Below, in pieces: positions 11,156 through 52,739 of a DNA stretch of 64,000 nt. The stretch lies in NCBI GenBank assembly GCA_041480845.1, contig JBGPAU010000001.1:5382-69381 (forward strand). Direction: 5' to 3'. Position 1 is the stretch's first letter. Every line of letters starts with the position of its first letter. The translations under genes were made by a program, and so were the position numbers. The stretch comes from Patescibacteria group bacterium (GTDB lineage Bacteria > Patescibacteriota > Microgenomatia > UBA8517). The notes below the pieces were generated by a model, which saw only the letters and a program-made list of their open reading frames with translations, did not search any database and was not told the DNA's origin.

Positions 11156-11467
11156 ATGGCAAAGCTAACAAAAGCAGACATTCTTCATGTCGCCAGTCTC
11201 GCGAAGATCGAAATAAGTGATGCAGAAGTAGAAAAATATTCTGAACAACTTTCCAAAGTGGTAGATTATTTTAGTGCCCTCTCGGAAGTAGATACGAAGA
11301 ATATTGAACCCACCAACCAAACCACAGGCCTGGAAAATGTTTTTAGACCGGATGAGGTAGCCGCGGAAAATTGTTTAACTCAGGATGCGGCAATTTCCGG
11401 AACCGACAATATCCATAACGGATATTTTAAGGTCAAGGCTATTTTGACCGAAAGGACGGACAAATAA
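11156..11467 (+). CDS. gatC: Asp/Glu-tRNA amidotransferase subunit C.
   Basis: Typical GatC N-terminus (VxHVAxLAKIxL...E) and genomic context with gatA. Confidence 0.8.
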   Translation: MAKLTKADILHVASLAKIEISDAEVEKYSEQLSKVVDYFSALSEVDTKNIEPTNQTTGLENVFRPDEVAAENCLTQDAAISGTDNIHNGYFKVKAILTERTDK

Positions 11468-12863: not shown

Positions 12864-14117
12864 ATGTTGCAGGAATTTAAACCGGTTTTAAAAAATAGAA
12901 ACTTTGTTTATTTGTGGACTTCGCAAATTACGTCCCAGTTGACGATAAACATCATGAATTTTGTTTTTCTTATTTGGCTCTTTGGTAAAACAGGTTCCGC
13001 CATTTCTACTTCATTTCTTTGGGTTGCTTACTCGCTCCCGGCTATTCTAGTCGGACCGTTTGCTTCCGCCACTGTGGATCTCGTCGACAGGCGGAAAATG
13101 CTTATTGCTACCAACCTGCTTCAGAGCTTGACCATTCTTTTTTATGCATTGGCTCACCCGGGAAATATTTTTGTGCTTTTTGAGGTAGTTTTTATTTACT
13201 CGCTTTTAAACCAATTTTATGTGCCGGCAGAAAGCGCCAGTTTACCTTCCCTTTTACCCAAGGATAGATTGCCCCAAGGCAATAGTCTCTTTTTACTCAC
13301 ACAGCAGGGATCTCTCGTTTTGGGTTTTGGTGTTGCAGGATTTATGCTTGCATTACTTGGTTTTGAAGACACCCTTTTACTTTGTTCGTTTTTACTTTTT
13401 GTGGCTTTTTTGAGTACCTTATTTCTTCCTAAACTTACAACAGGCAATGATGTTCCGCGGACATTCGAACTGGCCGTTACCGGATTTTTTGACAAAATTA
13501 TAGAGGGATATAAATTTATTAAAGGCGAACGCAAGGTTTTGGCACCATTTTTATTGTTAATAATTTTTCAGGTTTTGGTTCAGGTAGCGACAGTTGCAGT
13601 TCCTTCCATCGCCAGGGATCTTCTCAGATTATCCCTGAATACCGCGGGTATATTTATACTTGTGCCTGCCGGGATCGGTGCAATTTTAGGAATTCTCGTT
13701 CTACCCAGACTGATAGAAAGAGGCTGGCGCAAGAAAAAAGTCATAGAAAGATGCTTGATGCTTGTCGGTGTTTTTCTTTTCCTCTTCACTTTTATAATTC
13801 CGCTTCTGCCTTTCGTTTTGAGGGTTGTATCAACTTTTGTATCATTTGTAATACTGGGCATATCATTTGTGGGAGTAACCATTCCCTCGCAAACTTTCTT
13901 GCAGGAATCTACGCCTAAAGAACTAAGGGGAAGAGTTTTTGGCAATTACTGGTTTTTGGTTACGGTTGCCTCGGTTCTTCCTGTTATTTTCTCCGGTTCA
14001 ATTATTGAAGTTCTTGGAATAAGGATTTTACTTTTGATATTTTCACTTTTGGGAATTTTCGGGTTTCTATTGTCAAGAAGGTTTGGAGATAATTTTTTAA
14101 ATAATGGAACAACGTAA
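12864..14117 (+). CDS. MFS-type transporter, inserted between gatA and gatB.
   Basis: 12 predicted TM helices and MFS-like loop motifs. Confidence 0.55.
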
Positions 14118-15411: not shown

Positions 15412-16052
15412 CAGATAAGGTTAAAGAAGATTTTCAATTCGAAGGCGCCAAAACCGCTCATGAAGACCTGGGGAATACCGATGAGGGGAGAAGAATTTTA
15501 TCTAGTGAAAAAGGAGCAACTATTCTTGATACCTATGAGCGCGAGGCAAAATTAAAATCCGAGAACATACGTGATGCGATGACCGGACTATTCAATTACG
15601 GGTATTTGATGAATGAGTTGGATGCCAAAACTAAAGAACATGATAATAAACTGGCACTAATTTGGGTTGATATGGATAATCTTAAAGTTACAAACGACTC
15701 GATTGGTCATGAAGCGGGTACCGATGTTGTCAAGGGGGTGGCAAGAGTGGTTGCAAACAAAATAAGGTCAAATGAAAACGGACTCGCAGCAAGATACGGC
15801 GGGGATGAGTTTGTAATTTTACTTCCGGGAAATATGAACGTTGAAAGCCTAAGACAAAGGGGAGAGGAAATTAGGAAAGCGGTGTTTGATGCAAAATTTA
15901 GAGCGGGTGGGACCAATGTTCATCAAACAGTTAGCATTGGCGTAGGTTTGTGGAATGGAGTCGAGACAGCCAAGCAATTTTTGGAAAGGGTTGACAAGGC
16001 CATGTATGAGGCTAAGAAAAAAGGCCGAAATCTTGTTGTAGAAGCAGAATAA
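15408..16052 (+). CDS. GGDEF-domain protein (putative diguanylate cyclase), with no sensor or TM domain.
   Basis: [12 protein letters not shown] active-site motif and GGDEF fold motifs ([22 protein letters not shown]). Confidence 0.75.
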
Positions 16053-19000
16053 TGTCAAAATTTGTTCATCTTCACGTTCACACGGAATACTCGCTTCTTG
16101 ATGGACTTTCAAATATAAAAAAACTCTTAAGTCACGTCAAAGAAAACGGGATGGATTCCGTCGCCATAACCGATCATGGGGTGATGTATGGCGAGATAGA
16201 ATTTTACAAGGAGGCTAAAAAGCAGGAAGTCAAACCTATTTTGGGGATGGAAGGCTATATTACGCAGGGATTATTGACGGATAGGCCGGGAAGGGGCGAA
16301 CTTCATAATTACCATTTAATACTTTTGGCAAAAGATAATGAAGGCTACCAGAATTTAATGAAGCTCACCTCAATTGCGCATCTCATGGGGTATTATTACA
16401 AGCCAAGGTTTGATAGAGAAACTCTGCAAAAATATTCAAAAGGTCTAATCTGCACATCGGCCTGCCCACTGGGAGAGGTCGGTCAGGCAATATTAGATAA
16501 TGAACCTGCGAAAGCAAAGAAAATTGTCGAGTGGTACCTTGATGTTTTCGGTAAAGACTACTTCCTGGAAATTCAAAGACATGAATTTGGCAGCTGGGTT
16601 GAAAAGGCCCAAAATCAGGAAATTAAGACTTCTCTAATCGAAATGGCCGAGAATGAAAAAAAGTGGAATCAGGGGATTTTAAAACTGAGCAGGGAAATGG
16701 GGGTGCCGGTAGTGGCAACAAACGATGCACATTATATAAAGTCTGTTGACGCTTTGGCACAGGATATTTTGGTTTGTGTTTCTACGGGTAAAGTTGTTAC
16801 TGATATCAAAAGGATGCGCTATATCGACGCGCAGACCTTCTATGTAAGAAGTCCAGAAGAAATGACAGGTCTTTTTTCTGACGTTCCCGATGCTTTGGAA
16901 AATACAGTTAAGATTGCAGATAAATGCAATGTTGAAATTACCCTGGGAAAGTGGTCTTTTCCCAAGTTTCCACTACCTGAAGGAGTAACGTCAAACGATC
17001 AACTTAAAACCCTTGCCAGAGAAAGTCTTAAAAAAGTGATTCCAAAACCCGATAAAGAAACTAGGCAACGCCTGGAGCATGAACTTGAAATTATTTGCAG
17101 CAAAGGCTACGCACCTTATTTTTTGATCGTCCGCGATTTAGCCAATTGGACGAATTCACGAGGAATTATCACTAATACAAGAGGTTCGGCTGCGGGGAGC
17201 TTGGTTTCTTATGTATTGGGGATTACAACCGTTAATCCCCTTAAATATTATTTACCTTTTGAACGTTTCTTAAATCCTTTTAGGCCAAGTCCCCCGGATA
17301 TTGACTTTGATGTGGCTGATGACCGGAGAGAGGAGATAATCGGTTATATTACGGAAAAATATGGTAGAGAAAAAGTGGCTCAGGTTTGCACTTTCGGTAG
17401 AATGTTGAGTAGGGCAGCAGTACGGGATGTTGCCAGGGTTTTGGGATATCCTTATTCTACCGGAGACAGGATTGCCAAAATAATCCCGCCTCCAAAACAG
17501 GGTTTCCCGATTACAATTCCAAACGCACTCGAAGAGGTGCTTGATCTTAGAAATCTTTATGACACGGACCCCGATACTAAAAAGGTTTTGGATTTGGCTA
17601 TTCAAATCGAAGGGAATGCCAGACATGTTTCGGTGCACGCCGCAGGTGTAGTTGTTGCTCCCAGCGCAATTACTGATTATTCTCCGGTGCAGAAGGAACC
17701 TTCAGGAGAAAAAATAATAACACAGTACGAAATGCATGCTTGCGAAGATGTCGGTCTCATTAAATTTGATATTCTCGGAATCAGAAATTTGTCCATTCTC
17801 GGTGCGGCTGTTGACATAGTCAAGACGCGTTTGGGAATTAATGTTGACCTTCATACAATTCCCCTTGATGACAAAAAAACTTTTGAGATGCTGGCCAAAG
17901 GAGAAACAATGGGAGTATTTCAATTTGCCAGCGGTGGAATGACAAAATATCTGACCGAACTAAAACCCACTCAAATTGAAGATTTGATGGTAATGGTTGC
18001 ACTTTATAGGCCGGGACCGATATCACAGATACCGGAATATATCAGAAGGAAACACAATCCCAAATTAATTAAATATTTGGATCCGAGAATGGAAAAGTTT
18101 TTAGGAAAATCGTTCGGGTTAATCGTTTATCAGGATGATTTGCTTTTTTGCGCCCTCGACCTTGCCGGCTATACTTGGGAGGAAGCAGATAAATTTAGAA
18201 AAGCTGTGGGTAAAAAAATTCCCGAAGAAATGGCAGCCCAGAAAGAGAAGTTTAAGAAAGGGATAGTGGCTAATGGGCAAACGGAGGAATTTGCCGAACA
18301 TCTTTGGGAACTTTTTGAGCCCTTCCAGTCATACGGGTTTAACAAAGCCCATGCCGCCTCATATGGGATGGTTGCTTATCAGACAGCTTATATGAAGGCA
18401 AATTATTCGGTTGAGTATATGACCGCACTTCTTACCGCCGAATCTGACGATAAAGATAAAGTGACAGCTGCAATAAATGAATGTGTCAGGATGAAGATAA
18501 AAGTTCTCCCGCCCGATATTAACGAGTCGGAAGTCGGTTTTACCATTGTTCCCGAACAGAATTCTTTGAACGGAAAAGGTATCAGGTTTGGTCTTTCTGC
18601 AATTAAGAATGTGGGCGAAGCGGCAATCGGGGCAATTCTTTCAGCCAGGGAGGGTAAAAAGTTTTTGTCCTTTGCTGATTTTTTGTCAAAAGTTGACGGC
18701 AGAAAAGTAAATAAGAAGGTTCTTGAAAGCTTAATTAAAGTTGGTGCAATGTCAGCATTTGGTTCACGGGCTGCACTTTTGGCTTCGGTAGACTCCATTC
18801 GCGAAAAAGTTACAAAACCAAAAGGGGATGATAACCAACAAGGACTTTTTGCTACGGGAGAAATTAAAAAGACCGAAGCTGCATCGGTAATTACAATTTC
18901 CAATGTTCAGGAGTTTTCGGACGATGAGCTCGAATCTTTAGAGCGTCAACTTTTGGGATTTTCCCTTTCCGCAAAGCCCATCTCGGAACTTATCGGCCCC

Positions 19001-19528
19001 TTGATGTTTCAGTCAACCCACAAAATTTTTGAAATAACCTCGACCGAAACTTATTCGGAAATGGTTAGGGTTGCCGGGGTGGTAACCGAAGTAAGAGTAA
19101 TAACAACCCGGAAAACCGGGGCCGAAATGGCTTTTGCCAAGTTCGACGACGGTACGGGAACTTTGGAACTTGTGATATTCCCGAAAGTATTTAAAGCGTC
19201 ACGGGATTTTTGGACAGAAGGACAACCTCTTTTGATAGTAGGCAAGGTAGACAGCCGGGATGAAACCCCTGCAATTCTGGTTGAATCGATAGAAACACTA
19301 TCAAGCTTAGCTCAGGAGAAAGAAAGGGAAGTTTTTGTGAAAATACCTAAAGACACCGACTCAAATTCCCTCAAAAGATTAAAAACTCTTCTTACCCAGA
19401 ATTTGGGTGCCCAGGCGGGGTATTTGGTATTTGAAGGAGGCAAAAAAATAAAATTACCGTTTAAAATTATCTGGAATGAAACTCTGGCCAAGCAAATTAC
19501 TGAAATTCTTGAGAATAAAGAGCATTAA
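16052..19528 (+). CDS. dnaE: DNA polymerase III alpha subunit.
   Basis: N-terminal PHP domain (HLHVHTEYSLLDG), polymerase core, and OB domain. Confidence 0.9.
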   Translation: MSKFVHLHVHTEYSLLDGLSNIKKLLSHVKENGMDSVAITDHGVMYGEIEFYKEAKKQEVKPILGMEGYITQGLLTDRPGRGELHNYHLILLAKDNEGYQNLMKLTSIAHLMGYYYKPRFDRETLQKYSKGLICTSACPLGEVGQAILDNEPAKAKKIVEWYLDVFGKDYFLEIQRHEFGSWVEKAQNQEIKTSLIEMAENEKKWNQGILKLSREMGVPVVATNDAHYIKSVDALAQDILVCVSTGKVVTDIKRMRYIDAQTFYVRSPEEMTGLFSDVPDALENTVKIADKCNVEITLGKWSFPKFPLPEGVTSNDQLKTLARESLKKVIPKPDKETRQRLEHELEIICSKGYAPYFLIVRDLANWTNSRGIITNTRGSAAGSLVSYVLGITTVNPLKYYLPFERFLNPFRPSPPDIDFDVADDRREEIIGYITEKYGREKVAQVCTFGRMLSRAAVRDVARVLGYPYSTGDRIAKIIPPPKQGFPITIPNALEEVLDLRNLYDTDPDTKKVLDLAIQIEGNARHVSVHAAGVVVAPSAITDYSPVQKEPSGEKIITQYEMHACEDVGLIKFDILGIRNLSILGAAVDIVKTRLGINVDLHTIPLDDKKTFEMLAKGETMGVFQFASGGMTKYLTELKPTQIEDLMVMVALYRPGPISQIPEYIRRKHNPKLIKYLDPRMEKFLGKSFGLIVYQDDLLFCALDLAGYTWEEADKFRKAVGKKIPEEMAAQKEKFKKGIVANGQTEEFAEHLWELFEPFQSYGFNKAHAASYGMVAYQTAYMKANYSVEYMTALLTAESDDKDKVTAAINECVRMKIKVLPPDINESEVGFTIVPEQNSLNGKGIRFGLSAIKNVGEAAIGAILSAREGKKFLSFADFLSKVDGRKVNKKVLESLIKVGAMSAFGSRAALLASVDSIREKVTKPKGDDNQQGLFATGEIKKTEAASVITISNVQEFSDDELESLERQLLGFSLSAKPISELIGPLMFQSTHKIFEITSTETYSEMVRVAGVVTEVRVITTRKTGAEMAFAKFDDGTGTLELVIFPKVFKASRDFWTEGQPLLIVGKVDSRDETPAILVESIETLSSLAQEKEREVFVKIPKDTDSNSLKRLKTLLTQNLGAQAGYLVFEGGKKIKLPFKIIWNETLAKQITEILENKEH

Positions 19529-20635: not shown

Positions 20636-20670
20636 CGTTGACAATATTGGGTTTGTTGGTAAAATATGCG
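20636..20670 (+). promoter_or_regulatory. Strong sigma70-like promoter upstream of the tRNA pair: TTGACA, 16-nt spacer, TAAAAT.
   Basis: Near-consensus -35 and -10 hexamers about 25 nt upstream of the first tRNA. Confidence 0.45.
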
Positions 20671-20695: not shown

Positions 20696-20769
20696 GGCGC
20701 TGTAGACAAGCCGGGCAAGTCACTCCTGAGCAACAGGAGAGATCCCAGGTTCAAATCCTGGCGGCGCCT
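20696..20769 (+). tRNA. tRNA-like gene with an atypical anticodon arm (CUCCU-GAGCAAC-AGGAG). Positional anticodon GCA suggests Cys, but positions 32-33 are G-A rather than Y-U.
   Basis: Good acceptor stem (GGCGCUG/CGGCGCC), D-arm with GG, and T-arm CCAGG-UUCAAAU-CCUGG. The anticodon loop is non-canonical. Confidence 0.45.
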
Positions 20770-20805
20770 TTGTTCTTTTACTTTTCGTATGCGGGTGTAG
20801 CTTAT

Positions 20806-20880
20806 AGGCTGGTGGCTCAGTCCGGTTAGAGCGCCGCAGTTTAAATGCGGAGGTCGGAGGTTCAAGTCCTTCCCAGCCTA
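20806..20880 (+). tRNA. Class I tRNA with anticodon UUA (ochre-suppressor-like; derived from tRNA-Lys or similar).
   Basis: Acceptor AGGCUGG/CCAGCCU, D-arm GCUCAGUCCGGUUAGAGC, anticodon arm CCGCA-GUUUAAA-UGCGG (positions 34-36 = UUA), 5-nt variable loop, T-arm GGAGG-UUCAAGU-CCUUC. Confidence 0.5.
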
Positions 20881-20881
20881 T

Positions 20882-21040
20882 TAGGGTGTCGTGAACTAAT
20901 CTAGGGTTATTAACCCATGTTTGCTTTCGAGCACTCAGTTCTACGACACCCGACTAAAATTCCGGGCAGGTTACTGTCTATTTCAATTAACATTTTGAAA
21001 AGATAAGTACCTGCCCGTTTCATTTAACTCAATTGTTATA
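20882..21040 (+). ncRNA. Structured region after the tRNA pair: two nested long-range hairpins (GGGUGUCGUGAACU...AGUUCUACGACACCC with inner GGGUUAUUAACCC, then CGGGCAGGU...ACCUGCCCG). Function unknown; terminator or small RNA.
   Basis: Inverted repeats read directly from the sequence. Confidence 0.3.
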
Positions 21041-21051
21041 TAATTGGCTAA

Positions 21052-21561
21052 ATGCTTATTCTAGGAATTGACCCCGGAACAGCTACAACCGGATACGGTC
21101 TTGTTAATTTAAATGGAAAAGGTAATGAGGTTGTTACCTGGGGGCTTATTGAAACGGATAAGAAACTTCTTAAGGAAACCCGACTTGACTTCATATTTGA
21201 GGAAACTCTCCGTCTTATTAATAAACATAAACCGGATGTTTTTGTTTTTGAAAAGATCTTTTTTGCTACAAACGCCAAAACCGTAATTGCGGTTGGACAA
21301 GCTCAGGGGGTAATGCTTCTTGCGGCTTCCAAGGCAAAAGTTAAAGTTGAAGAATACGCGCCGGGAACGATTAAAAAGATGATAACCGGTAGCGGCCGTG
21401 CAAACAAAAAAGATGTACAAGTGGCAATCAGGAAAATTTTGGGCAGCCGTGTTAAAAGCGAAGTTCATAAAAAGACCCATTTTGATAATGCGGCTGACGC
21501 GCTTGCGGTTGCGTTGACACACGCGTTTAAAATAGGGGAGGGGGTGAAAGAAATTGTTTAA
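21052..21561 (+). CDS. ruvC: Crossover junction endodeoxyribonuclease RuvC.
   Basis: ILGIDPGTATTGYGL start and RNase-H-like catalytic residues (D7, E66, H/D at C-terminus). Confidence 0.85.
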   Translation: MLILGIDPGTATTGYGLVNLNGKGNEVVTWGLIETDKKLLKETRLDFIFEETLRLINKHKPDVFVFEKIFFATNAKTVIAVGQAQGVMLLAASKAKVKVEEYAPGTIKKMITGSGRANKKDVQVAIRKILGSRVKSEVHKKTHFDNAADALAVALTHAFKIGEGVKEIV

Positions 21562-21799
21562 GGTCGGAAAAGTTTCTCATTATTATGATAAGTTGAGCGT
21601 TGCCATAATTGATTTGGATGGAACCCTGAGTGTTGGCGACAAGGTTAAGTTTACCCGTGGTGGTGAGGACCTGTTTGAACAAAAAGTTGAATCTATTCAA
21701 ATCGAACACGAAAAGAAGGATTCCGCTGGTAAAGGAGATGTGGTAGGATTGAAGACTAATGAGGCGGTTAAGGAAGGGACGGAAGTATTCAAAATTTGA
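21554..21799 (+). CDS. Small beta-barrel protein, EF-Tu domain-2-like/TRAM-like (hypothetical).
   Basis: 81-aa ORF with alternating beta pattern and a GDVVGL motif. Confidence 0.3.
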   Translation: MFKVGKVSHYYDKLSVAIIDLDGTLSVGDKVKFTRGGEDLFEQKVESIQIEHEKKDSAGKGDVVGLKTNEAVKEGTEVFKI

Positions 21800-48247: not shown

Positions 48248-48331
48248 TGCCGAGGGCGGGACTCGGACCCGCATGAGTTATGCACTCGAGGGCTCTTAAG
48301 GCCCTTGCGTATACCATTTCGCCACCTCGGC
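48248..48331 (-). tRNA. tRNA-Leu (anticodon UAA), class II.
   Basis: Acceptor GCCGAGG, anticodon arm AGGGC-CUUAAGA-GCCCU, long variable arm, T-arm GCGGG-UCCGAGU-CCCGC. Confidence 0.8.
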
Positions 48332-48584
48332 TAATTAAATTCGTTAAAGATCTCTTTTTTCATCCACACCCTCCCTGATCTAGACTTAAGATATTTCTCT
48401 TTCTTTAGTGCATCAATTTTATTAGAATAACTCTCAAGATAAATTAAAATCCAAGGTTTATATCTCTTAGTAAAATAACTTCTTCCATCATTATGTTCAT
48501 TCAATCTCCGTTCAGGGTTGTCTGTAATACCTACTTAACTTTTAATCTTGATTGTGCTTAACAGCACATAAATGTAATACATTT

Positions 48585-52568: not shown

Positions 52569-52623
52569 TGTGTCCCTGGACAGAATCGAACTGTCATCTC
52601 CTCCTTAGAAGGGAGATGCTCTA
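52569..52623 (-). repeat. Orphan 55-nt direct copy of the 3' two-thirds of tRNA-Arg(UCU) (3' end through anticodon arm), 97 bp beyond the intact gene.
   Basis: Identical to 52666-52720. Confidence 0.7.
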
Positions 52624-52667
52624 CCTCGTTGGACGCGGCAAGCTACGCTTATCCGTTGACCTCGCTG

Positions 52668-52739
52668 TGTCCCTGGACAGAATCGAACTGTCATCTCCTC
52701 CTTAGAAGGGAGATGCTCTATCCGTTGAGCTACAGGGAC
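52668..52739 (-). tRNA. tRNA-Arg (anticodon UCU).
   Basis: Acceptor GUCCCUG, anticodon arm UCUCC-CUUCUAA-GGAGG, T-arm GACAG-UUCGAUU-CUGUC. Confidence 0.8.

Follow-up and report, generated by a model that had tools for sequence, protein, structure and literature searches.

Polycistronic arrays of irregular transfer RNAs (tRNAs), some of them with nonsense- or missense-suppressor anticodons, have been found in soil metatranscriptomes (Mukai et al. 2017, PMC5389517). Some of these tRNAs were charged in vitro but did not decode, and a non-translational role was suggested for them; they were attributed to acidobacteria, had in part an 8/4 acceptor/T architecture and G-1, and were located near toxin-antitoxin genes (Mukai et al. 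2017, PMC5389517). The allo-tRNAs (Mukai et al. 2017; review PMC7609411) use one scaffold with many anticodons, UUA included, and their active members are toxic through mistranslation; they are distinguished by acceptor/T stems of the 8/4 or 9/3 type, by a long variable arm and by serine (or alanine) identity (PMC7609411). Here we describe a tRNA gene with the anticodon UUA, which would read the stop codon UAA, in a stretch of 64,000 nucleotides from a Patescibacteria group bacterium (assembly GCA_041480845.1, contig JBGPAU010000001.1), referred to as the window. The gene lies before ruvC in an array of tRNA-shaped units, and arrays at the same site were found in relatives. We tentatively propose that this tRNA represents one of the alleles of a tRNA-shaped module, and that the module belongs to a non-coding operon that is accessory and horizontally shuffled in some Woesebacteria. 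It is probably not a dedicated stop-codon suppressor, and would be at most a weak ochre suppressor as a by-product.

We regard the irregular tRNA polycistrons, together with the anticodon-diverse allo-tRNAs, as the closest precedent for this locus. As in the polycistrons, several non-canonical tRNA-like units stand in one predicted transcript, with suppressor anticodons among them, and the polycistron units that carry U73 and the anticodon GCU, and those that have an 'extra loop', can be compared with the body family called B here (for example L010 2658-2730, GCU; L-numbers denote loci of relatives in our collection of ruvC loci) and with the members that bear long inserts. Unlike the polycistrons, the arrays have a 7/5 architecture and a fixed chromosomal site before ruvC in Woesebacteria, with no toxin-antitoxin genes, and the island-of-divergence pattern and the co-transcribed small RNA seen here have not been described for the polycistrons. 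With the allo-tRNAs the arrays share the use of one tRNA scaffold with diverse anticodons, ochre included. The window tRNA itself could be ruled out as an allo-tRNA, having a 7/5 architecture, a variable loop of 5 nt (AGGUC) and no G3:U70.

The ochre suppressors of Escherichia coli, supG/supL derived from lysT by U36A and supC derived from tyrT by G34U, carry UUA on a normal elongator tRNA. A UUA tRNA of one relative (L090; loop CUUUAAA, 79% identical to tRNA-Lys(CUU)) resembles the lysT-derived suppressors, and L109, which has GUA on a window-type body, may be compared with the tyrT-derived ones. The E. coli suppressors, however, are laboratory mutations of essential multicopy genes, whereas the genes described here occur naturally as surplus copies within an accessory operon. 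The body of the window UUA tRNA, unlike those of supG/supL and supC, is neither Lys- nor Tyr-like. Natural stop anticodons in or around bacteria of the candidate phyla radiation are also known from recoded phages (Borges et al., bioRxiv 10.1101/2021.08.26.457843) and from code-25 Patescibacteria and phage (PMC13059738). Those tRNAs read UAG or UGA with real reassignment, whereas the present anticodon is UUA, in a chromosomal gene and with UAA as the main stop codon. Phage tRNAs with anticodon-loop mutations evade anticodon nucleases and still decode (van den Berg et al. 2023, PMC10264068). The arrays likewise hold extra copies that are off consensus at positions 32, 33, 37 and 38 with the anticodon kept (GCA in family A), and in both cases a conflict would be fought over the anticodon arm. 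But the phage tRNAs are phage-borne and decode, whereas here the genes lie on the chromosome, many loops are non-decoding and family C varies in the anticodon itself. In mascRNA, at the 3' end of MALAT1, and in the tRNA-microRNA transcripts of gammaherpesvirus 68, a tRNA shape lets ribonuclease (RNase) P and RNase Z set the ends of the adjoining RNA with no role in translation. These systems are eukaryotic or viral and the likeness is architectural; the only computed link is a sub-threshold mascRNA match.

ARAGORN called a tRNA-Stop(tta) at 20805-20881 on the plus strand, one of 18 tRNA genes in the window, and the Rfam tRNA model covered 20806-20880 end to end (66.8 bits, E=5.7e-14; gathering score 29). 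A direct reading of the sequence agreed with both on the anticodon and gave the class I fold that had been described in an earlier note on this DNA: an acceptor stem of 7 bp (AGGCUGG/CCAGCCU) followed by U8 and G9, a D arm (GCUC-AGUCCGGUUA-GAGC) followed by G26, an anticodon arm with the stem CCGCA/UGCGG and the loop G32-U33-U34-U35-A36-A37-A38, a short variable loop, a T arm (GGAGG-UUCAAGU-CCUUC) and the discriminator A73. Every stem of the 7/5 architecture was paired and the nucleotides of the tertiary interactions were complete (U8, A14, G15-C48, G18G19, G53-C61, U54-A58, U55 and C56). The tRNA also had the features of a canonical elongator, that is, stems of 7/4/5/5 bp, a 7-nt loop, U33 and a purine at position 37. 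G32, which the earlier note had found unusual, was the sole irregular position, and the loop GUUUAAA with U33, A37 and A38 has the decoding-competent form. The minimum-free-energy fold retained the same anticodon hairpin. An alternative fold or register with a sense anticodon was ruled out, as ARAGORN, the Rfam model and the free-energy fold were concordant. Because the same array sequence was present in three independent assemblies (NCBI GCA_041489295.1, Logan SRR35959930 and JGI 3300052989), the array is not an assembly artefact. The UUA tRNA gene is real, far beyond chance.

The 3' context of the UUA tRNA was unlike that of the canonical window tRNA genes. It encodes no CCA and has a T after the discriminator; C74 was found in 16/16 canonical genes of the window, and T74 in the UUA tRNA and its Cys-like neighbour. 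Of the canonical genes, Thr(CGU) and His(GUG) alone encode a full CCA; in Arg(UCG) the corresponding triplet is CCC. The nearest canonical tRNA in the window was Val(UAC), with 71% identity, and the nearest in E. coli was tRNA-Ile, with 73%. The best four canonical matches in the window were Val(UAC), Pro(UGG), Val(GAC) and Thr(CGU), at 63-71%, and tRNA-Lys(CUU) was not among them. The closest canonical tRNAs overall (Val(UAC), Pro(UGG) and E. coli tRNA-Ile) were only 66-73% identical to it. The earlier suggestion of a tRNA-Lys(UUU) derivative therefore does not suit this copy, though it fits the relative at L090.

Homologues of the neighbouring genes place the window (G+C 41%) in Candidatus Woesebacteria (Microgenomates, candidate phyla radiation). 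TAA terminates 35 of its 59 long open reading frames (ORFs), or 59%, including dnaE (16052-19528), gatC (11156-11467) and ruvC, all three of which end in TAA at normal family length. That conserved genes use UAA as a terminator, as the earlier note had stated, was borne out for dnaE and gatC; the ORF at 12864-14117, tried as eno, is an MFS transporter instead, and eno was not located. In the window genes the next in-frame stop followed at a median of 12 codons after TAA versus 10.5 after TGA. We found no tandem-stop enrichment or TAA avoidance in these genes that would accommodate suppression, and none of them was split by an in-frame TAA. Four genes ending in TAA continue in frame into unrelated neighbours (PolX/LemA, GatC/GatA, PGI/PPDK and trigger factor/DUF5660). 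Stop usage and the tandem-stop analysis together rule out a recoding of UAA or a gene that requires suppression: UAA is the ordinary and main stop codon, and the genome is without adaptation to an efficient suppressor.

The UUA tRNA is preceded by a promoter and a tRNA-Cys-like unit and followed by a structured small RNA, a long terminator and then ruvC, which starts at 21052 (Table 1). The near-consensus TTGACA-16-TAAAAT promoter that had been noticed earlier was recovered by the consensus scan about 140 nt before the UUA tRNA. As it lies upstream of the first tRNA-like gene, it would drive the whole operon; strong promoters likewise precede the arrays of L004, L017, L090 and L103. The other odd tRNA that had been reported nearby is the tRNA-Cys-like unit, which has U73, the anticodon GCA and the loop GAGCAAC, with A33 and with G32 able to pair with C38; in Rfam it also gave the sub-threshold match to the mascRNA model. 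The spacer between this unit and the UUA tRNA is 36 nt rather than 60 bp, and it includes GCGGGTGTAGCT, the remnant of a third tRNA-like gene. Relatives carry this gene intact: L090 has the identical upstream context cttttacttttcgt, followed by an intact tRNA-like gene beginning GCGGGCGTAGTTCAG. The closing stem of the small RNA is maintained by compensatory changes in L090, L093, L096 and L141, and the base of the terminator hairpin (GGGCAGG/CCTGCCC) is conserved with its T tract at the end of every array examined. An Rfam search of the spacers, the small RNA and the long-insert tRNA-like genes gave no family besides 'tRNA'. The stretch from promoter to terminator appears to form one non-coding transcription unit, and such predicted units contain two irregular tRNA-shaped units in the window and up to four in relatives.

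We then compared loci around ruvC from a collection of 80 species-level genome loci and 80 metagenome loci, plus seven obtained by exact-protein look-ups, and counted arrays among the 140 loci whose sequence extended 600 nt or more upstream of ruvC. The gene order dnaE-rplS-UPF0102-(sodA)-(DUF5652)-(gap or array)-ruvC was conserved, with synteny in more than 150 loci. One or more tRNA-like genes before ruvC were found in just 35 of the 140 loci (~25%); the others had a gap of 15-50 bp, including L011, whose RuvC is 91% identical. Among complete genomes, CP066686.1 carries an array, and CP011214.1 and OY970314.1 are without tRNA-like genes at the site. Because so few loci have an array and even close relatives lack one, we consider it accessory and dispensable. 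Array content varied by species and amounted to 33 different arrays and ~65 different tRNA-shaped elements, several of which were missed by ARAGORN and detected with a covariance model made from the family in the window. The bodies fall into families that resemble diverged paralogues of real tRNAs: A is Cys-like, B is Gly(GCC)-like (76% identical to the window tRNA-Gly, with the same anticodon stem UCUCC/GGAGA), C is the family of the UUA tRNA and D is Lys-like (79%). Only 30 of the ~65 distinct elements had a 7-nt anticodon loop. Loop length in the others was 6, 8, 9, 11 or 19-65 nt, and the long loops contain hairpin insertions. U33 was present in 28 of 39 seven-nucleotide loops and the combination Y32-U33-R37 in only 18, and T74 was found in 37/63 array elements. 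Judged from these loops, the array members would be mostly unfit for decoding. The bodies carry varied anticodons or loops of the wrong length, suggesting that the operon, taken in its entirety, does not encode faithful decoders.

Family C occupies the last tRNA position before the small RNA, and its members have a common type of acceptor stem and a T arm of the form G(G/A)AGG-UUCAA(A/G)U-CCUUC. Its cloverleaf was supported by covariation: 99% of cells were paired, 12/21 pairs were double-changed and all five pairs of the anticodon stem covaried, whereas 0/500 shuffles reached the observed values and slid controls collapsed. At the same position, however, the anticodon was CGA, GGG, AGG, AUU, GUA, GGU or UUA, or the loop had an odd length (Table 1), without conservation among orthologues, and the discriminator varied among A, G and U. 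Since the same body is found with anticodons for Ser, Pro, Asn, Tyr, Thr and stop, family C cannot be a faithful adaptor in all species. Some copies in relatives were degenerate, with a mismatched stem in L093 and damaged T loops in L095 and L247, the latter shortened.

Comparison of pairs of arrays placed the variation within the tRNA. Between L012 and L017, positions 12-52 of the family-C tRNA were 61% identical, whereas positions 1-11 and 53-74 were 95-100% identical, as were the family-B tRNA, an 84-nt spacer, the small RNA and the long terminator loop. Between L023 (AUU) and L247 (UUA), the tRNA had 9 differences in 74 positions versus 7 in ~480 flanking nt; these changes cluster in the D loop and the anticodon loop and turn AUU into UUA. 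In the same pair a 101-nt tRNA-like gene was identical (101/101), and the small RNA and terminator matched at 165/170 positions. L111 and L106 showed the same pattern. Four-fold degenerate sites of ruvC differ by 42-67% in these pairs. The operon blocks are far more alike than such neutral sites, which points to either recent interspecies exchange or very strong constraint, and we take it to suggest that the whole cassette was recently exchanged between species. The boundaries of the blocks were sharp (2535-2955 in L012 versus L017; L023 2459-2968 in L023 versus L247), and the L023/L247 block reaches ~44 nt into the upstream coding sequence. Divergence of the D/anticodon core (20-39%) was not above that of the four-fold sites. 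The core thus appears as an island of divergence relative to the operon around it, but its evolution cannot be said to outpace neutral sites across the genome; it has either escaped the conservation seen elsewhere in the operon or is selected against such conservation. In its D loop, AGUCCGGU(U)A, and its UUUAAA loop the core of L247 agrees with the window allele, whereas its stem is that of L023; it looks like a mosaic formed by recombination between alleles. A diversity-generating retroelement behind the variable core was rejected, as the substitutions were not adenine-specific and no reverse transcriptase was nearby. Pairing between the anticodon loop and the small RNA was also ruled out, as L012 and L017 differ in their loops while their small RNAs are nearly identical.

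The anticodon UUA was found on four or five bodies (window/L096, L103, L090, L247-250 and L004/L020/L111-114). L096 has an anticodon arm identical to that of the window on a body that is 89% identical. L103 has the arm UCGCA-CUUUAAA-UGCGG with different acceptor and T stems, and L090 has UUGCC-CUUUAAA-GGCGA on its Lys-like body, at the same position before a homologous small RNA. Both keep the loop although all of their stems have changed, and the UUA loop therefore seems to be favored rather than a one-off accident. In L004/L020/L111-114, UUA lies inside an 11-nt loop. Among the seven-nucleotide loops UUA was counted 5 times in 39, versus 0.7-1.5 expected from composition; the naive probability is P=6e-4, and it becomes 0.03-0.005 if just three or four occurrences are independent.

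We tentatively favor the explanation that the UUA tRNA is an exchangeable allele of a tRNA mimic. The strong promoter would produce one RNA of ~360 nt with the tRNA-Cys-like unit, the UUA tRNA, the small RNA and the terminator, and RNase P and RNase Z would cut out the tRNA-shaped units and thereby release the small RNA, whose 5' end would be defined by RNase Z cleavage behind the UUA tRNA. Such processing is suggested by the conserved acceptor/T-arm halves, the lack of an encoded CCA and the U after the discriminator. The constant half would serve handling by RNase P, RNase Z and the CCA-adding enzyme, and the D-loop/anticodon-arm core would be an exchangeable, fast-diversifying cassette. UUA may be favored as the least harmful triplet for a mimic that is possibly charged and reaches the ribosome, where release factors would outcompete it and misreading would yield just short C-terminal tails. 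The selective agent acting on the cassette could be a fast-evolving partner that touches the anticodon arm, such as a phage factor, or a nuclease or toxin directed at tRNAs. Several observations weigh against this explanation. No other array member looks as canonical as the window UUA tRNA, which has all the tertiary nucleotides, U33 and A36-A37-A38. L090 and L103 keep CUUUAAA though all stems have changed, as would be expected under purifying selection on a decoding anticodon. No partner protein, nuclease or toxin gene was linked to the array. The identity of the flanks could reflect strong constraint, in which case the divergence of the core would lie within the neutral rate. Finally, the idea of a least harmful triplet also predicts CUA and UCA, both of which were found only in odd-length loops (L109 and L106).

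The alternative that draws most on these observations is a genuine ochre suppressor, one of the possibilities listed in the earlier note, and we consider it less likely than the mimic though well worth weighing. The tRNA would be processed, CCA-tailed and charged, and would read UAA (and UAG by wobble) at low efficiency against RF1 and RF2, giving regulated or background C-terminal extensions, with lysine in the case of the L090-type copy. The canonical cloverleaf with its high Rfam score, the strong promoter, the enrichment of UUA and its retention on several bodies all agree with this, as do U33 and the A36A37A38 context, which favors i6A37 in other bacteria, and the kinship of the L090 copy to tRNA-Lys(CUU), as in the lysT-derived suppressors. 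But TAA ends most genes without tandem-stop or context adaptation, and 75% of the relatives have no array. The arrays of L247 and L023 are otherwise almost identical, suggesting that the anticodon flips between UUA and AUU without genome-wide adjustment, and the L247 copy has its shortened T loop. G32, present in the window copy, is rare in decoding tRNAs. We prefer the mimic because most relatives do without the array, the other units of its predicted transcript cannot decode, the anticodon varies on the same body even between near-identical arrays, the 3' context is non-canonical and the genome lacks adaptation to suppression. A dedicated and conserved decoding role, in particular, is disfavored by the dispensable operon, the mostly unfit loops and the unrelated anticodons of sister species. 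A bolder form of the mimic explanation, which we hold with more doubt than the suppressor, is that the arrays are an RNA-only conflict or diversity locus, of a kind not described before, in which divergent cassette alleles, UUA included, are kept under balancing selection and shuffled between species; the UUA tRNAs would then be the first naturally maintained UAA readers in standard-code bacteria and would act as programmable mistranslation or decoy RNAs.

Three further explanations are less probable. If the tRNA shapes were purely a processing scaffold, serving as RNase P and RNase Z signals that excise small RNAs, the anticodon arm would drift and UUA would be accidental. Conservation of the acceptor and T arms beside a free D/anticodon core agrees with this, and so do the structured RNAs that follow tRNA-like units (the window small RNA and the spacers of L017 and L103), a core divergence that does not exceed that of the ruvC four-fold sites, and the mascRNA match of the first unit. 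We nevertheless find it improbable, given that UUA is more frequent than drift predicts and is kept on bodies with all stems changed, and that family A retains GCA despite its deformed loops. Moreover, the terminator loops and spacers in the same blocks are 98-100% identical, so that the blocks look recently shared and the core truly more divergent. A contest at the DNA level, in which free-standing GIY-YIG endonuclease-like genes cut tRNA-like genes and resistant variants or co-conversion make the mosaics, would leave the anticodon without function. Small GIY-YIG ORFs do flank ruvC in L247-250, L253, L102, L023 and L140, a degraded GIY-YIG copy lies between two window tRNA genes, and the high-identity blocks are sharply bounded. 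Most arrays, that of the window included, have no nearby GIY-YIG gene, however; the short YhbQ-like proteins are only putative homing enzymes, and the retained cloverleaf, the strong promoter and the recurrence of UUA are left unexplained, which makes this very improbable. Least probable of all is a decaying pseudogene with a mutated anticodon, or a code in which UAA is read as sense. The tRNA remnant 4 nt upstream and the degenerate copies in L093, L095 and L247 might speak for decay, but the window cloverleaf is perfect with every stem paired, family C shows compensatory evolution, and promoter and terminator are conserved. UAA also ends dnaE, gatC, ruvC and 32 other genes at expected lengths. 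Both possibilities are essentially excluded. The phage origin suggested earlier was also rejected, as the locus is chromosomal and syntenic and the exact UUA arm had 0 matches in IMG/VR. A BLAST search of annotated phages gave only generic tRNA-level similarity to the UUA tRNA. The T-arm pattern matched 77 viral contigs, all at ordinary Met, Trp, Tyr, Asn or Ile tRNAs, and is therefore uninformative.

To our knowledge, no natural UAA-reading tRNA is maintained in a bacterium with UAA as its main stop codon. Our literature searches returned nothing specific on natural ochre suppressors or tRNA arrays in Woesebacteria or other bacteria of the candidate phyla radiation. As far as we know from the searched literature, four features are new: the fixed position in the chromosome of Woesebacteria, the structured small RNA in the same predicted transcript, the pattern of a constant handle with a variable core, and the recurrence of UUA. 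If the UUA tRNA decodes, it shows to what extent ochre suppression is tolerated by a cell, and engineers of the genetic code would gain a natural scaffold; otherwise it is a clean case of tRNA shapes recruited outside translation, half frozen and half exchangeable. The constant/variable pattern may point to an unrecognized arms race over the anticodon arm in ultra-small symbiotic bacteria, and the locus offers a defined case in which the irregular tRNA polycistrons of soil metatranscriptomes, so far unexplained, can be put to the test. 'tRNA-Sup' calls in metagenome-assembled genomes need comparative context before a suppressor or a code change is inferred from them.

Table 1. Features of the window array, anticodon arms of family C, and related elements in the window and in relatives.
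Feature	Locus	Position	Strand	Details
Sigma-70-type promoter	window	20638..20665	+	TTGACA-16-(TG-n-)TAAAAT; consensus scan 11/12 matches, TG before -10
tRNA-Cys-like unit (family A), first in operon	window	20696..20769	+	ARAGORN tRNA-Cys(gca); Rfam tRNA 47 bits
12-nt remnant, 5' end of family-B (tRNA-Gly-like) unit	window	20791..20802	+	GCGGGTGTAGCT; sequence reading; apparent deletion scar
UUA tRNA, class I, family-C body	window	20806..20880	+	loop GUUUAAA; anticodon 20841-20843
Structured small RNA	window	20884..20951	+	closing stem GGGUGUCGUGAAC/GUUCUACGACACCC around two small hairpins; -29.3 kcal/mol, z=-5.1
Intrinsic terminator	window	20963..21025	+	hairpin CGGGCAGG...CCUGCCCG then UUUCAUUU; -28 kcal/mol, z=-8.05
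Family C anticodon arm	window, L096			CCGCA-GUUUAAA-UGCGG
Family C anticodon arm	L012			CUCGA-CGCGAAA-UCGAG
Family C anticodon arm	L017			UCUGG-GUGGGAC-CCAGA
Family C anticodon arm	L018			CUCAG-AUAGGAU-CUGAG
Family C anticodon arm	L023			UCUGA-GUAUUAA-UCAGA
Family C anticodon arm	L032			8-nt loop
Family C anticodon arm	L109			CCAGA-CUGUAAA-UCUGG
Family C anticodon arm	L141			21-nt loop
Family C anticodon arm	L247			UCUGG-UUUUAAA-UCAGA
Family C anticodon arm	L251			CUGCG-AUGGUAU-CGCAG
Family C anticodon arm	L252			UCUGG-AUAGGAU-CCAGA
Family A homologues	relatives	L017 2449-2521, L018 2443-2515, L029 2374-2446, L095 1029-1101, L010 2562-2636, L094 1092-1166
Gly-like genes with hairpin inserts	relatives	L094 1188-1278, L033 2514-2613, L097 743-849, L095 940-1025, L109 896-986, L018 2633-2731, L023 2557-2657
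Small RNA homologues, type one	relatives	L090 1305-1396; L093, L096, L141
Small RNA, second type	relatives			L010, L012, L017, L018, L094, L097, L109, L120
Hairpin-closed spacers between tRNA-like units (70-115 nt)	relatives	L017 2366-2437, 2633-2708; L090 1114-1228; L103 286-393
GIY-YIG ORFs (YhbQ-like, 90-126 aa)	relatives	L247-L250 1232-1507, 2021-2359; L253 1232-1507; L102 130-405; L023 3521-3859; L140 2006-2341
Shortened, degraded GIY-YIG copy	window	~48331-48582	-	57-aa ORF between tRNA-Leu(UAA) and tRNA-Arg(UCG)
81-aa ORF	window	21554-21799	+	overlaps end of ruvC
tRNA-Arg(UCU), intact	window	52667-52739	-
Duplicate of the 3' two-thirds of tRNA-Arg(UCU)	window	52578-52646	-	TAGAGCATCTCCCTTCTAAGGAGGAGATGACAGTTCGATTCTGTCCAGGGACA

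The other members of the arrays had features of their own. The family A homologues keep GCA in deformed loops (GAGCAAC, GCGCAGC, GCGCAAC, or loops of 6-8 nt) with A, C or G at position 33 and with positions 32 and 38 able to pair; the canonical CUGCAAA was seen only in the distant L078 and L084. Retention of GCA in loops unsuited to decoding would be expected if these units were recognized by CysRS but not used on the ribosome. Some tRNA-Gly-like genes have hairpin insertions of ~20-45 nt that replace the anticodon loop, and these were missed or mis-called by ARAGORN. Several of the inserts contain a conserved Shine-Dalgarno-like sequence, GAGGAGGGU(G/A)A, paired with CCUNCUC or CACCUCC, which resemble an anti-Shine-Dalgarno sequence. 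The structured small RNAs between the last tRNA-like gene and the terminator fall into two or more types by sequence, and their closing stems covary. Hairpin-closed spacers lie between the tRNA-like units of some arrays.

The genes next to the window array are rplS, UPF0102, DUF5652, ruvC, the 81-aa ORF and a putative metallopeptidase, with no toxin-antitoxin genes among them. The 81-aa ORF has a weak similarity to EF-Tu domain 2 (PF03144, 27.2 bits; cut-off 30.3). It always follows ruvC, whether an array is present or absent, and is conserved in L001-L009, L252 and L253. The GIY-YIG ORFs may be mobile endonuclease genes that favor the neighborhood of tRNA genes. Elsewhere in the window, the 3' two-thirds of tRNA-Arg(UCU) is present as a direct duplicate ~20 nt downstream of the intact gene and resembles the relic of an earlier integration or excision event at the tRNA.

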